DNA of 64,000 nucleotides from an uncultured Clostridia bacterium (GCA_944390395.1 CALXPY010000001.1:3167-67166), one strand, 5' to 3'; counted from the stretch's first letter, positions 10,204 through 20,581 are shown. The notes: generated by a model from the letters alone, not told the origin. Made by a program: numbers and translations.

Positions 10204-10569
10204 TCATATTGTTGAAAAAGTAAAAGTATATTCATCAAAATACATGTTAATTAAACTTTTAAAATTATAAGTAACATTACAATTTCTTATTAACTCATAT
10301 ACCATAATTGGGTAACCATTTTCTTTATTATATTTATATGTTTCTTTTGCTTGTTTATAGAATTCTCCCTGTGCGAATTCTTTTAATTGTAATGCTATTT
10401 GCTTATTGTATTGATTAAATATTTTAGATCCAACGTCAAACGTAGAAACAATAATTTCGGGATATTCTATAGAATATTTAACTATTACTTCTCCATTATA
10501 GTACAATTCTTTTTCTACAATATGAAAATTAAATTTATTAAAGCTTTCCATTTTATTTACCTTTCTCAT
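10204..10569 (-). CDS. hypothetical protein, possibly 3'-truncated (ends ...FDEYTFTFSTI)
   Basis: 121-aa ORF; C-terminus resembles the start of the YxFTGGAHG motif of DUF3298/RsiV-like proteins but the ORF terminates before it; weak call. Confidence 0.35.
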   Translation of the reverse strand: MRKVNKMESFNKFNFHIVEKELYYNGEVIVKYSIEYPEIIVSTFDVGSKIFNQYNKQIALQLKEFAQGEFYKQAKETYKYNKENGYPIMVYELIRNCNVTYNFKSLINMYFDEYTFTFSTI

Positions 10570-11102
10570 TTATCTTCAATAATTTTCTTACAATTATTAA
10601 GATTTTTAAAAGATAAATACCAATTCATTCCATTTTTTTCTTGATCAATTTGTTTCATTCTTTCTTGTAAAGCGCAAAAATTTTGTGGTGGTGGTAATAT
10701 GCCAGGTTGACAAGGAACCCAATTAGCAGGCATTACTAAGGAATTTTCATCAGAGACTTGCAATGCTTGAAGAGTTCTTAATATCTCTGGTATTGCCCTT
10801 CCTATTTGCATAGGATATACAAATATTGCTCTTATAACTCCTTTATCATCAATTATATAAACATTTCTAACAGTTTCTGTTTTGCTAACACTATTAGAAA
10901 TCATTCCATATTTTCTTGCTATTTCCCCATTTCTATCTGCTATAATAGGGAAACATATTTTAATTCCGGTTTTACAATATATATCATAAATCCATGCCAA
11001 ATGTGAAGCATTTGAATCTACGCTCAATCCTATTAAACAAGTATTTAATTTTTCAAAATATGTACTAGCTTTCTGAAATGCAATTATTTCTGTTGTACAT
11101 AC
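10566..11102 (-). CDS. peroxiredoxin (1-Cys/Prx6-type, AhpC/TSA family), C-terminal segment of a gene split by an integrated element
   Basis: Reading upstream of the annotated ORF gives ...FKDFTPVCTTEIIAFQKASTYFEKLNTCLIGLSVDSNASHLAW..., the peroxidatic-Cys region of Prx6-type enzymes, but no N-terminus; the missing N-terminus is at 20429..20581. Confidence 0.8.
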   Translation of the reverse strand, partial: VCTTEIIAFQKASTYFEKLNTCLIGLSVDSNASHLAWIYDIYCKTGIKICFPIIADRNGEIARKYGMISNSVSKTETVRNVYIIDDKGVIRAIFVYPMQIGRAIPEILRTLQALQVSDENSLVMPANWVPCQPGILPPPQNFCALQERMKQIDQEKNGMNWYLSFKNLNNCKKIIEDK

Positions 11103-11131
11103 GGGGGTAAAATCTTTAAATGTGGGGATAG

Positions 11132-12709
11132 TTAAATTAATTTTTTAATATCTACTTTTAAATCAAATTTTACGGTTTTATCACTATAAATCCATATAGT
11201 GTCAATTATATTTTCTAAAGCATATCTGCTAGGCACTTCTGCAGATATAATCTCATCAAAATATTCCATTGCAGTTTTTAATTTAATTATTTTTTCTTTT
11301 GATATATCTTGTTCTGCTTTCTGCAGAATTTCTTGTAGTTTCTCTATTTTACTCGTCTTTTCTAATTCTAACTCTTTGTATGAAGCTTCTATCATCTGTT
11401 TCTGATACTCATTGTTATTTCCTGCTAAATCTTTTATTTTTTGATTTAATAACACTTTATACTCTGCTTTTAAAGTTTCAATTTCAAATTTAATTTTTCC
11501 TTTATTGTTTTGCTCTTTATTAGTTTTAACATCAATCTCTATTTTATTTATCTCATCTTGATATTTTTCTTTAGTAAATTTTAGAAATTCTTTCAAATGA
11601 ATAATTATATCACTTTCCTTTATTTCATGGCATTTACATCTTGACTTTCCATAGGTTCTATACTGCGAACATTCATATCCTTTTTGCTTTTGTTTTCTAT
11701 TCATTGTAATTCCACTTACTCCAAAGCCACAGTCACCACATCTAATTAAGCCAGAAAAAGCATAATTTCTTTTTCTAGTTCCTGATGTAGATTTTGACCT
11801 TGCTTTTCTTTTTCGTATATTTTGTGCCATTTCAAAAGTTTCTTTTGAAATAATTGCTTCATGATGATTTTCAAATACAAAATGTTCTTCTTCTGGAAGT
11901 TTTATTGCTCTGCCTCGTATAGAAATTGTTTTCTTTTTATGAGTTCTTAAGTTTCCTGTATATACATCATTGTTCAAAATATTACTTATCATATATGTAG
12001 ACCAAAGCTTCTGTACTGGATGTTTATATATTCTTCCTCTTTCTAAATGTTTTCGCCTATAATATACTGATGGAGTAGGATAATTATATTTACTATTTAA
12101 AATATCACAAATCTTTTTTCTACCTAATCCGTCTTCAACATACAATTTGTATATTAGTTTTATAACTGGTCTAATTTCTTCATCTACATATAGTTTTGTA
12201 ACATCTTCTTTATCTTTTACATAGCCATAATAATTTCCCATTACTAACCTGCCAGTCTTTTGTTTAGAATACATGTGATCTCTTGTTTTTCTTGAACAGT
12301 CTTTTACATATCTTTCATTAAACCAAGTGGTAATTCCAATAGTATCATCTCTATCATTTAAAACATCATAAGTTCCTCCCATTTCAGAAACTAAAATTAA
12401 ATTTTTTTGCATATTCTTAAATTCATCAATAAGTACCAAAACTTTTCCATTGTTTCTTCCTATCCTTGATAAGTCTTTTGCTATAACTACATCAATTTTT
12501 CCTCCCTTTACTTTTTCTAACATCTTTGTGAATTCAGGTCTATTAAAGGTATATCCCGAAACATTGTCATCTATGTAGAAGTCTTTATCTTCGATAATCC
12601 AATTACGAGTAGAAGCATAATCTTTAATAATTCTTTTTTGTTCTTCTATACTTGAGTAATTTTCTTTATCTTCATCTCTAGACAATCTACAATATCCTAC
12701 AACTGTCAT
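11132..12709 (-). CDS. large serine recombinase (resolvase N-terminal domain + recombinase + zinc-ribbon + coiled-coil)
   Basis: Start moved to ATG 12709 (RBS GGAGGG); N-terminus MTVVGYCRLSRDEDKENYSSIEEQ carries the catalytic Ser motif; cysteine pairs CGDCGF...CSQY...CKCH form the zinc ribbon; C-terminal coiled-coil; 526 aa. Confidence 0.9.
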   Translation of the reverse strand: MTVVGYCRLSRDEDKENYSSIEEQKRIIKDYASTRNWIIEDKDFYIDDNVSGYTFNRPEFTKMLEKVKGGKIDVVIAKDLSRIGRNNGKVLVLIDEFKNMQKNLILVSEMGGTYDVLNDRDDTIGITTWFNERYVKDCSRKTRDHMYSKQKTGRLVMGNYYGYVKDKEDVTKLYVDEEIRPVIKLIYKLYVEDGLGRKKICDILNSKYNYPTPSVYYRRKHLERGRIYKHPVQKLWSTYMISNILNNDVYTGNLRTHKKKTISIRGRAIKLPEEEHFVFENHHEAIISKETFEMAQNIRKRKARSKSTSGTRKRNYAFSGLIRCGDCGFGVSGITMNRKQKQKGYECSQYRTYGKSRCKCHEIKESDIIIHLKEFLKFTKEKYQDEINKIEIDVKTNKEQNNKGKIKFEIETLKAEYKVLLNQKIKDLAGNNNEYQKQMIEASYKELELEKTSKIEKLQEILQKAEQDISKEKIIKLKTAMEYFDEIISAEVPSRYALENIIDTIWIYSDKTVKFDLKVDIKKLI

Positions 12710-12746
12710 TTTCCCTCCTTTTGCCTGATATTGCTTATCGTCTATG

Positions 12747-12962
12747 TTAGCATACATTGTCTGATAATTCCACTTGTTTTGTAACAATTTTATTAAGAAC
12801 TTCGGGATAGTTCTCATTGCCAGTTACAAATATTCCTACCTTGTACTTTTGTTCTTTATATTTCTCGATTAGTTCTTTTGTTCCCTGTTTTTCTAATTCT
12901 TCCTCTGTCAAATAAATTTGTATATAATTATATCTTTGAATTTCCGAAACTTTACTTTGCAT
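12747..12962 (-). CDS. small hypothetical protein (71 aa) immediately upstream of the recombinase; candidate directionality factor or regulator
   Basis: ORF only; co-directional, ends 38 nt before the recombinase start; acidic/lysine-rich. Confidence 0.4.
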   Translation of the reverse strand: MQSKVSEIQRYNYIQIYLTEEELEKQGTKELIEKYKEQKYKVGIFVTGNENYPEVLNKIVTKQVELSDNVC

Positions 12963-13060
12963 TATTCTTGGACTCCTTTATAACATTTCTAATAAATGTT
13001 ATTCATAATAGAGGTTGTCTTAGACATCTCTATTATGAAAAGTCCGAGATGTTATGAAAT
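12963..13060. promoter_or_regulatory. palindromic sites upstream of the small ORF/recombinase operon
   Basis: Perfect palindrome ATAACATTTCTAATAAATGTTAT and inverted repeat GACATCTC-N15-GAGATGTT in the AT-rich leader. Confidence 0.25.
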
Positions 13061-19497: not shown

Positions 19498-19515
19498 TAA
19501 TAAATTCCTCCAAAA

Positions 19516-20037
19516 TTATTTTATTGATACATTATAGCATTTTTCTAATAATTTTATAAACAATTCATAATATATCCCTATTGATTTTACAAATTGTTCA
19601 CTATCAATTAATTTTTTCAATTCTTTAATTGATACCCATTTAGCTTCTGAAACTTCACTTTTTTGTAATACTAGATTATTTATTTCAATATCATCTTTTA
19701 CTAACCATACGTCAACAAAGCCATGTTCTCTTTTAAATGACAATAATAACTCTATTTTATCTTTATCTATATCAATTCCTAATTCTTCTTTACTTTCCCT
19801 TATAGCTCCTTCCACAGAGGTTTCCCCTGAATCTACAACTCCTCCTGTAAAAGCCCATTTACCTGGATTTCTTTTTAAATTTTCATTTCTTTTTTGTATC
19901 AAGATTTCTCCTCTGCTATTCAAAATCCATACATGCACTGACAACTTATATTCGCCTTCTTCTGGCTCTCCCTCTTCTCTTATAAAAGTCTTATTTATTT
20001 TTTCTCTTTTTCCATTATATAAATCTATAATTTCCAT
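19516..20037 (-). CDS. NUDIX hydrolase
   Basis: Nudix box GGVVDSGETSVEGAIRESKEELGI. Confidence 0.85.
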   Translation of the reverse strand: MEIIDLYNGKREKINKTFIREEGEPEEGEYKLSVHVWILNSRGEILIQKRNENLKRNPGKWAFTGGVVDSGETSVEGAIRESKEELGIDIDKDKIELLLSFKREHGFVDVWLVKDDIEINNLVLQKSEVSEAKWVSIKELKKLIDSEQFVKSIGIYYELFIKLLEKCYNVSIK

Positions 20038-20056
20038 TTTTTAATCATTCCTCCAT

Positions 20057-20341
20057 TTATAATAGCTCTATTTTTTCAAAATCATCAGGTACAAATACTT
20101 TTCCATTATAATATTTTTTGGCATCTTCTATAAACACTTTTTTTCTATTTTTTAAATCATTATCAATTGTATGCGATAATATTACATTTTCTACATTTAG
20201 TCTTTCACACAATTGTGCTACATATTTAACTGTACTATGATGATGTTTTTCAATAGGATTATATTTTTCTGCATCTTCTCCCGCCATATATGCATCTGCA
20301 AATAGCCAACTACTATTTTTTACATAAATACCAATTTTCAC
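20057..20341 (-). pseudogene. C-terminal fragment of an MBL-fold metallo-hydrolase (N-terminus missing)
   Basis: PIEKHHHSTVKYVAQLCERLNVENVILSHTIDND resembles the C-terminal H..HST....A......KLVLTH motif of MBL-fold enzymes; only 94 aa; lies at the right end of the element. Confidence 0.35.
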
Positions 20342-20428
20342 GATTTACCGTTTCTATATAGTCCTCTAATTTTGTTTTAATACTCTCTTTTGATTGTTTT
20401 TTTCAACCTTCCCCAAATTGTAAGACTT

Positions 20429-20581
20429 TACGGGAGTGAAATCACCTGGATGAGAAAAAAGAATCACCCATTTGCCTCTATAATTACTTAAGCTTATGTT
20501 CCCCATTGTTGTTTCTGCTTCAAAATCTGGTGCCGTTTCCCCTATTCTAACATTTCCATTCATTAATATTTCATAATCCAT
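20429..20581 (-). CDS. peroxiredoxin N-terminal segment (split gene)
   Basis: [51 protein letters not shown] then diverges into element-derived sequence; canonical Prx6 N-terminus up to the peroxidatic Cys. Confidence 0.8.

Follow-up and report, generated by a model that had tools for sequence, protein, structure and literature searches.

A peroxiredoxin gene (prx) was found to be interrupted, inside its catalytic-cysteine codon region, by a 9,329-bp insert in a stretch of 64,000 nucleotides from an uncultured Clostridia bacterium (GCA_944390395.1 CALXPY010000001.1:3167-67166); this whole stretch is referred to below as the window. The insert encodes a large serine recombinase (LSR) and a 71-residue partner (orf71), and it represents a family occupying the same position of prx in at least 70 species rather than a one-off knockout. 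In the interpretation that we favour, with a probability of roughly 55%, a non-viral mobile element interrupts a prx gene of the sigmaK type, and the LSR and orf71 would excise this element in the sporulating mother cell, thereby rejoining prx.

The split gene, its recombinase and its attachment sites

The two parts of prx, the two attachment (att) sites and the two recombination genes are located in the window as follows:

20429..20581, minus strand: N-terminal part of prx, residues 1-51; the open reading frame (ORF) starts at 20581 and reaches the repeat at 20443..20429
10566..11114, minus strand: C-terminal part of prx, from the DFTPV|CTTE core to the stop codon, with the peroxidatic Cys codon and the 1-cysPrx_C domain
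20405..20465, minus strand: attL (B arm, core and P' arm); core 20429-20443, predicted crossover CC at 20433-20434, element arm CAATTTGGGGA
11075..11135, minus strand: attR (P arm, core and B' arm); core 11100-11114, predicted crossover CC (GG on the plus strand) at 11104-11105, element arm ATCCCCACATTT
11132..12709, minus strand: LSR, 525 amino acids (aa), with a good ribosome-binding site at its start; an alternative upstream start at 12757 would give 541 aa
12747..12962, minus strand: orf71, 71 aa, directly upstream of the LSR, candidate recombination directionality factor

The prx frame (minus strand) breaks off at ...HPGDFTPV|CTTE.... In the integrated state its N-terminal part reads on through 20 element-encoded codons to a stop (ORF 20366..20581, 71 aa), and the frame of the C-terminal part (CTTEIIAFQKASTYFEKLN...) resumes 9.3 kb downstream on the same strand, running to the stop at 10566. 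The insert is flanked by a 15-bp imperfect direct repeat, TACGGGGGTAAAATC at 11100-11114 and TACGGGAGTGAAATC at 20429-20443 (plus strand), with a spacing of 9,329 bp. When the insert and one copy of the repeat were removed in silico, an uninterrupted 228-aa ORF was obtained; precise excision would restore one ORF, as it does for sporulation gene-intervening elements. The rebuilt protein matches Pfam AhpC-TSA (E 7e-35) and 1-cysPrx_C (E 3e-6), scores 275 bits against the NCBIfam peroxiredoxin equivalog NF009668 (cut-off 211), and has 5ovq as its best solved relative (E 3.5e-60). With its AhpC-TSA domain, PxxxTxxC peroxidatic motif and C-terminal 1-cysPrx_C, it is a Prx6-like enzyme. An initial annotation of this DNA had proposed a prx split by a 9.3-kb element, the hexamer TACGGG at both junctions within a 15-bp imperfect repeat, and restoration of the active site upon deletion of 11106..20434. 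All of this was borne out: both parts and the exact 15-mers were located, the hexamer is confined to the two junctions within the window (both strands scanned), and the proposed deletion coincides with the predicted crossover coordinates.

The interruption also has natural counterparts without the insert. A search with the rebuilt protein returned an uninterrupted 228-aa protein (P0001) that is 99% identical to it, and the contig encoding it (L001) aligns to window positions 21046..20429 and 11114..10453, with an overlap of exactly the 15-mer. Two more empty sites, L089 and L090, come from other samples, and all three are approximately 99% identical. The L090 site reads GATTTCACTCCCGTA followed by TGTACAACAG, identical to the attB predicted from attL and attR of the window, and the three sites differ at two synonymous core positions only. 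Because of these three natural empty sites, the boundaries of the insert are fixed to a single base. Relatives with an uninterrupted prx at this locus were the comparison that the initial annotation had called for, and these contigs supply it, L001 joining both sides of the junction. As an aside, each of the empty sites (L001 604, L089 1410 and L090 1423) has its own synonymous variant at core positions 6 and 9 (TTT/TTC and ACC/ACA/ACT), and all of the occupied sites examined have C6/T9 in the att core.

The split form is the prevailing one. The exact 71-aa N-terminal fragment was encountered on at least 181 contigs (294 index blocks) of a public collection; the cluster of the C-terminal fragment is found on 118 contigs, and that of the intact prx on 6, so that the split allele makes up about 95% of the contigs of the window's species. 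Within this species, all 11 full-length variants of the C-terminal part are single amino-acid changes, with no truncations, and the C-terminal protein is 100% identical in loci L002 and L003. One further candidate, P0376 (L091 2420-3070), was set aside: it is a 216-aa chimera in which another N-terminus (MKIAISSDNHLDVN...) is fused in frame to prx at about residue 60, and it occurs on a single scaffold. It is probably a misjoin or a deletion, and could also be a third junction.

The recombinase itself has the domains of an integrase-type LSR, all above the Pfam cut-offs: Resolvase PF00239 (profile positions 1-144 of 145), Recombinase PF07508 and Zn_ribbon_recom PF13408. The presumed nucleophilic Ser lies in the motif YCRLSRDE at residues 6-13. 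The protein matches the phrog_95 integrase (E 2.5e-87); among solved structures, the TnpX catalytic domain (2mhc, E 4e-14) comes closest. Identity to annotated phage and plasmid records does not exceed 31%, the nearest named protein being TndX (31%), and the best NCBIfam match, CcrC, is far under its cut-off. The gene ends 17 nt from the core repeat, near one end of the element, as in sporulation gene-intervening elements. A 526-aa LSR placed 30 bp inside the left end had been annotated initially; the recombinase, its Ser motif and its zinc ribbon stand, and its length and position are to be corrected to 525 or 541 aa and approximately 17-27 nt. Gene callers choose the 541-aa start, and among the best 120 LSR clusters listed (92-100% identical) nearly all are of 539-542 aa, with one of 523 aa.

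These data bear on one explanation of the split gene that we consider very improbable, namely that the element is an inert remnant that no longer excises, leaving prx a pseudogene here. Frameshifted prx parts, or LSR genes split in tandem arrays, are indeed present in some species. The window, however, has an intact LSR and an intact orf71, and its two att sites and two prx parts are undamaged as well; the best 120 LSR clusters listed are nearly all full length, and the ratio of nonsynonymous to synonymous substitution (dN/dS) of the LSR is 0.06-0.3.

The orf71 gene adjoins the LSR in 70 of the 77 LSR-bearing loci. Its relatives form 654 protein clusters; those listed are 70-79 aa long (nearly all 71), none with a recorded Pfam domain. 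In the copies derived from the loci the C-terminal half is nearly invariant, and almost every full-length copy terminates in NVC. The orf71 of the window gave no matches in the Pfam, PHROG and PADLOC families, and an alignment of 43 family members gave no significant PDB matches. Its position and conservation make orf71 a candidate directionality factor.

The ends of the element carry inverted arms, ...ATCCCCACATTT(N3)-core on one side and core-(N8)CAATTTGGGGA... on the other. The 65-70% LSR subfamily has different arms, CATCCAAAGA and TCTTTGGATG; the arms thus co-vary with the recombinase. The predicted attB of the window is CTCATCCAGGTGATTTCACTCCCGTATGTACAACAGAAATAATTGC, and the predicted attP, which is the right end of the element joined to its left end, is ACTATCCCCACATTTAAAGATTTTACCCCCGTAAAGTCTTACAATTTGGGGAAGG. 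In four LSR subfamilies the predicted attP is dyad-symmetric about the same CC at 16-18 of 22 positions (17/22 in the window), as compared to 9-13 for the next-best centres and 11/22 for attB. An attP that is symmetric about a 2-bp crossover and a weakly symmetric attB are the anatomy expected for LSR sites. Going by the centre of symmetry, the crossover falls on positions 10-11 of the 15-mer, within the FTPVC Pro codon, and the two mismatches of the repeat are explained by one copy having the B arm (host) where the other has the P arm (element).

The element family and the promoter of the split gene

One genome per species was scanned for relatives of the LSR; 125 species had relatives, and 80 of these were kept. 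The relatives are 65-100% identical, and their hosts are all uncultured gut Clostridia (e.g. Clostridium sp. CAG:273, CAG:465 and CAG:567), including one circular 1.57-Mb HiFi metagenome-assembled genome (MAG). In 70 of the 80 loci the LSR is followed downstream by a C-terminal part of prx that begins at residue 34-50 (mostly 46-49), the distance being 200 nt or less in 44 of them; four further contigs end before it could be judged. The N-terminal part was found upstream in 31 loci, and the distance between the parts is 3.0-14.1 kb in the 28 loci having both. The LSR and orf71 are the only gene families universal to the loci; the cargo varies. A locus in which an intact prx appeared to lie beside the LSR (L083) turned out to be a tblastn artefact, with a normal attR junction.

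Between species that all carry the split gene, the C-terminal part of prx has a dN/dS of 0.04-0.2; for the window and L027, both of them occupied, the value is 0.062 at a synonymous divergence (dS) of 0.43. The N-terminal parts are intact and in frame in 29 of 33 cases. Judged by these ratios, the split prx is under purifying selection, and the persistence of a split allele at about 95%, with no decay, in a strongly constrained gene is hard to reconcile with a plain knockout.

Prx is also the target of a second LSR family, 30-35% identical to the first, which cuts the gene at ...VDSNxSH|LAW... (approximately residue 85). Elements of this kind are located in L017 (13790-20191), L025 (11706-19715), L035 (3148-6966), L020, L075 and L085, and partial contigs suggest them in L028 and L076. 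Their arms are GTTGGTAA..TT and AAGTTACCAAC, and their cargo is variable (e.g. Abi_2). Among the three inspected, L017 and L025 have a small upstream ORF of 62-78 aa, and L035 has none of 55 aa or more. In species with both element families prx is in three pieces. The presence of two unrelated LSR families in one gene with a sigmaK-type promoter was counted in favour of the developmental interpretation.

The promoter was assigned with the sigmaK consensus of C. difficile, where promoters of sigmaE and sigmaK have a common -10 box and are told apart by the -35 element, ATA vs AC (PMC3789822):

20634..20661, minus strand: sigmaK-type prx promoter, ACCATTTAAAGTAATAATTCATAAAATA (AC-N17-CATAnnnTA), 52 nt upstream of the ATG

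The sequence upstream of the prx start conforms to GTAAC(C/A)-N16-17-CATAnnnTA(T/C)A. The pattern AC-N16-17-CATAnnnTA is present no more than 120 nt from the prx ATG in 20 of 26 species loci, and the -10 box alone in 25 of 26; in random 120-nt windows of the same loci the corresponding background is 0.62% and 6.6%. The full pattern occurs six times in the whole window (both strands), and two of these occurrences are intergenic and upstream of a gene. One is that of prx; the other (30760-30786, minus strand) lies ahead of a cwlJ/sleB-like hydrolase gene (Hydrolase_2, 30294-30752). Uninterrupted prx orthologues carry the motif as well, both at the empty sites and in a related species that lacks the element (L086-L088, 79% identity), where DUF1540 is again the neighbour of prx. 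A precedent exists in C. difficile, where cotE, encoding a coat peroxiredoxin/chitinase, is sigmaK-dependent (PMC3789822). By this promoter evidence, which is computational but specific and independent of the element, prx looks like a late mother-cell gene. The initial annotation had further listed splB and cwlJ-gerQ in this genome; splB-like and cwlJ/sleB-like genes are present, whereas the proposed gerQ (29955-30278) matches no family.

Two observations concern the neighbourhood of prx. The DUF1540 gene, a conserved neighbour, is preceded in many species by AAAATAGCCATA(C/A)TAAT (in the window, the region at approximately 10085-10130), a motif that differs from that of the prx promoter; its -10-like part (CATnnTA) resembles forespore sigmaG/F promoters. 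In the element-free species L086 (6001-9376), a family-3 glycoside hydrolase gene comes next after the intact prx, with DUF1540 behind it, and this order of prx and glycoside hydrolase is reminiscent of the peroxiredoxin-chitinase fusion of C. difficile CotE.

In the scheme that we propose, the LSR would integrate the element by recombining attP with attB at the CC of the Pro codon in FTPVC, part of the active site. The element would stay integrated, and prx split, throughout vegetative growth and in the chromosome of the forespore and spore. In the terminally differentiated mother cell, the LSR, with orf71 as its directionality factor, would recombine attL with attR; the element would leave as a circle, and the rejoined 228-aa prx would be transcribed from its sigmaK-type promoter. 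The germ line would thus keep the element with prx function unharmed. Both the excision and its timing to sporulation in the mother cell are steps that we infer.

The expression of orf71 in such a scheme was considered through the region upstream of it, which in the window contains the following feature:

12980..13033, minus strand: two conserved inverted repeats upstream of orf71; IR2 (12980-13002, ATAACATTT-N5-AAATGTTAT) abuts the ribosome-binding site, and IR1 is at 13008-13033

This region was compared with its equivalents in L006-L085. The IR2 palindrome shows a compensatory T>C / A>G change between subfamilies. In most of the family the order upstream of orf71 is a terminator-like hairpin, GCATAAYAT, and the palindrome CATAATATTT-N5-AAATATTATG beside the ribosome-binding site, the latter with a compensatory C/G variant. 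For the conserved palindrome, no consensus structure was obtained with RNAalifold, and neither the element nor the region ahead of orf71 contained a known Rfam family. An upstream ORF of 8-9 codons (strong GGAGG site, ending in ...Y*) precedes the terminator-like hairpin in the main family, and nine loci (e.g. L052) have an extra insert of about 150 nt between the upstream features and orf71. A mother-cell-type CATAnnnT box is located 38-46 nt (about -41) upstream of the orf71 ATG in 46 of 72 modules, 35 of which have ATA 16-18 nt further upstream, in a sigmaE-like arrangement. Nearly all elements are co-oriented with prx, the module of L082 being reversed, and in minimal elements approximately 290 nt separate attL from the start of orf71; the recombination genes might therefore be triggered, alternatively, by transcription reading through from the prx promoter.

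An additional scenario is that of a vegetative stress switch of the "active lysogeny" kind, in which oxidative stress would lead to excision in a subpopulation of cells, restoring prx until a later reintegration. An antioxidant enzyme would be a fitting target for it, LSR systems are reversible given a directionality factor, and since almost all element genes are co-oriented with prx, its promoter could drive orf71 and the LSR by read-through. We nevertheless consider it unlikely. The conserved prx promoter is of the sigmaK type; a scan for sigma-70 promoters and terminators, of little use in DNA of 26% G+C, gave 70 promoter matches as compared to 75 expected by chance, so that no sigma-70-type promoter stood out. 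A peroxide-regulator motif was not noticed, though none was searched for, and the opposite orientation of the L082 module also speaks against such a switch.

Cargo, mobility and the case for a selfish island

Between orf71 and the N-terminal part of prx, the element carries a variable cargo region:

13296..20341, minus strand: variable cargo region, comprising
13296-13883, minus strand: Ham1/ITPase
13955-14530, minus strand: GNAT
14638-14823, minus strand: 61-aa deoxyribosyltransferase-like remnant
14965-15747, minus strand: SAM methyltransferase
15805-16248, minus strand: NUDIX
16346-16648, minus strand: MazG
17547-18392, plus strand: RIO/ABC1-like kinase
18396-19316, minus strand: zeta toxin
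19291-19497, minus strand: 68-aa ORF overlapping the zeta toxin, possible antitoxin
19516-20037, minus strand: second NUDIX
20057-20341, minus strand: 94-aa ORF

This cargo is shared only with the same-species loci L002-L005; elsewhere in the family the cargo includes AAA_14/DUF4143 ATPases, Abi_2, Dam methylase, Bro-N and HTH_36 proteins, among others. Family scans of the window cargo revealed no phage structural, lysis, replication or conjugation genes, and no relaxase or capsid transfer genes were seen in any of the elements scanned. A phage origin was rejected: the LSR has no relatives in IMG/VR, its identity to phage and plasmid records is 31% at most, and the integrase is the sole PHROG match in the window element. 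The element is therefore neither a prophage nor prophage-like. A strong palindromic hairpin at 18370-18422, between the convergent kinase-like (plus) and zeta-toxin (minus) genes, is probably a bidirectional terminator; it gave spurious sub-threshold Rfam matches only. In L083 (approximately 1990-2590), the sigmaK-type sequence AC-N16-CATATTATA stands ahead of a cargo gene located between the LSR and attR; the encoded protein is small and membrane-anchored, and its C-terminal domain is a candidate for the exosporium BclA type.

Several observations weigh against the developmental interpretation. That the hosts, all of them uncultured, sporulate is something we infer from genes and promoters. 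The predicted attP junction had no matches in IMG/VR and JGI metagenome contigs. The AlphaFold model of orf71 is poor (pLDDT 62) and resembles no known directionality factor; in the window's own subfamily (17 modules) the CATAnnnT box is replaced by AATAACAT, and no sporulation promoter could be assigned to the window orf71, where CATAACAT at -94 has no matching -35. A +1 frameshift is present in 4 of 33 N-terminal parts (L012 at about 5130, L020 at about 835, L031 at about 1350 and L039 at about 7190); it is a shared one-base C insertion (CCN-C-GGN for CCN-GGN) 3 nt before the att core, which puts the N-terminal part out of frame with the core. A few C-terminal parts also look broken, including those of L020 and L039, and these damaged parts show prx to be dispensable in some species. 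The zeta-toxin module, finally, might retain the element selfishly.

The same holds for the evidence of mobility. The identity of the LSR is nearly uncorrelated with that of the C-terminal part of prx (Spearman 0.16, 1,431 locus pairs): in locus pairs with 95-100% identical LSRs the prx parts average 71.5% identity, L022 and L023 have an LSR dS of 0.007 and a prx dS of 0.757, and for L044 and L048 the values are 0.116 and 1.85. Vertical co-inheritance of element and host was rejected on account of this low correlation and the discordant dS values, and since LSR divergence is uncoupled from host divergence, the elements are actively passed horizontally from species to species and do not represent an ancient insertion that became fixed. 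Many insertions may accordingly be recent, which alone could account for intact gene halves; because the elements move, intact halves by themselves are not proof of function. Within a species, the recombination module has been swapped between the window and L002 (11132-12962 vs 17609-19436): the cargo is 99-100% identical, orf71 89% and the LSR 95%, with an LSR dS of 0.35 and a prx dS of 0.019. AttP-like junctions (arm, core, arm) were also found inside loci, namely in L015 (13088), L018 (4864), L068 (6075) and L075 (6760). They were considered as possible circles and rejected as such, being tandem arrays of elements. L068 and L075 each have two LSR copies, of which one is split, the second unit of L015 (the circular HiFi MAG) has no LSR of the first family, and recombinase-less cassettes sharing the att site occur among these four loci.

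The main rival explanation, which we consider less likely than the developmental one, is a selfish site-specific island that inactivates a dispensable prx at its most conserved DNA, excises for transfer only, and persists by zeta-toxin addiction and reinfection. The recent transfer between species, the module swap within one, the tandem arrays and LSR-less cassettes, which are as in SCC-type islands, the zeta-toxin module of the window element, the frameshifted N-terminal parts in 4 of 33 species and the existence of element-free species and strains all agree with it. What it leaves unexplained is that two unrelated LSR families reside in a gene with a conserved sigmaK-type promoter, that the split allele shows no decay in 118 contigs at a frequency of about 95%, and that the window and L027, both occupied, have a dN/dS of 0.06; moreover, no element was found to have the relaxase or capsid genes that transfer would call for. 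The initial annotation had offered two outcomes, developmental reconstitution or a recent knockout. The former has gained the support of the promoter, conserved across species, and of the CotE precedent, and the latter fits poorly, given that the split allele is in the majority (118 to at least 181 contigs vs 6), that at least 70 species are occupied and that dN/dS is 0.04-0.2.

The developmental interpretation can be extended further, in a form that we offer as speculation and regard as improbable. A whole clade of uncultured gut Clostridia would have prx entire only in the sporulating mother cell, having been colonised independently by the two unrelated LSR families. Lysis of the mother cell would free the circles and so provide a route of spread; and in minimal elements of about 3 kb the sigmaK promoter of prx would read into orf71 and the LSR, so that the split gene would time its own repair.

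Relation to known intervening elements and implications

The sporulation gene-intervening elements described to date all reside in mother-cell genes and are all LSR-based (PMC5595907, PMC10747680). The known elements and targets are skin in sigK, SPbeta in spsM, vfbin in spoVFB, gin in gerE and yin in yabG (PMC5595907, PMC4191935, PMC5025042, PMC10747680), and a directionality factor has been identified for several of them, including SPbeta, the skin of C. difficile and gin (PMC5595907, PMC10747680). The present element is of this known kind, a gene-intervening element excised by an LSR, and it corresponds to the class in architecture, recombinase, att sites and reconstitution of the target; new are the target gene, the breadth of the family and the double targeting. 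In the library searched, no paper was found in which an intervening element or a serine integrase targets a peroxiredoxin, in agreement with the statement of the initial annotation that such a target was undescribed. The architecture had been likened there to skin and SPbeta. This stands as regards an LSR element that splits a gene restored by its excision; being small, non-viral and not prophage-like, however, the element is closer to gin.

The gin element of Bacillus cereus ATCC 10987, with GirC and GirX (PMC5595907), is likewise non-viral and splits a coding sequence, that of a late mother-cell gene, which prx would also be by its promoter. Its LSR is paired with a small partner of no known family (GirX and orf71 are likened by description), inverted arms flank a short direct repeat in its att sites, and the ORF is rebuilt upon excision, by prediction in the present case. 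It differs in that its target is a transcription factor rather than a peroxiredoxin, and in its size of 28.6 kb with three LSRs, as compared to 3-14 kb with one here; the present family is, in addition, horizontally mobile among at least 70 uncultured gut Clostridia species. The arrangement of orf71 and the LSR mirrors those of sprB-sprA and girX-girC. Skin, SPbeta, vfbin and yin (PMC4191935, PMC5025042, PMC10747680) share with the present element an LSR encoded inside an interrupted gene, in their case a mother-cell sporulation gene rejoined by excision, as is proposed for prx, and in these systems expression of the directionality factor is tied to sporulation sigma factors. They are, however, prophages or prophage-like, whereas here there are no phage genes and no IMG/VR match, the LSR is distant from annotated phage and plasmid recombinases (at most 31%), and prx is not on the published target list.

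Other likenesses lie outside sporulation. The SCC/SCCmec islands of staphylococci (Ccr) are also LSR islands with variable cargo, tandem composites and recombinase-less cassettes on the same att site. SCC integrates at the 3' end of rlmH and does not inactivate it; here the gene is cut at its catalytic motif, and the hosts and the recombinase clade differ. The closest solved or annotated relatives of the recombinase belong to Tn4451/Tn4453 (TnpX) and Tn5397 (TndX), small clostridial elements that excise as circles. TnpX and TndX have a relaxed choice of target, and their elements carry mobilisation or conjugation genes; by contrast, the present family uses a single site of 40-50 bp in one gene across at least 70 species, with no mobilisation gene seen. 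As for the target, CotE of C. difficile (PMC3789822), a spore-coat 1-Cys peroxiredoxin/chitinase, is a precedent for a peroxiredoxin driven by sigmaK in the mother cell; it differs in being an uninterrupted fusion protein, and is likened here by description, not by sequence.

Developmental gene rejoining has been described in a few cultured strains of Bacillus and Clostridium, with sigK, spsM, spoVFB, gerE and yabG as targets. If the developmental interpretation is true, the gene of an antioxidant enzyme joins this list, one gene having been struck by two unrelated recombinase families, and the phenomenon would take place at the scale of an uncultured gut clade of at least 70 species; in that of the window, the split allele predominates. 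The compact LSR with its 71-aa partner and a defined attP/attB pair of 40-50 bp is also a possible orthogonal integrase tool. In stool metagenomes, the ratio of reads from attB and attP to those from the integrated junctions would, under the same interpretation, report sporulation in situ, and would thereby give a handle on sporulation in organisms not yet grown.

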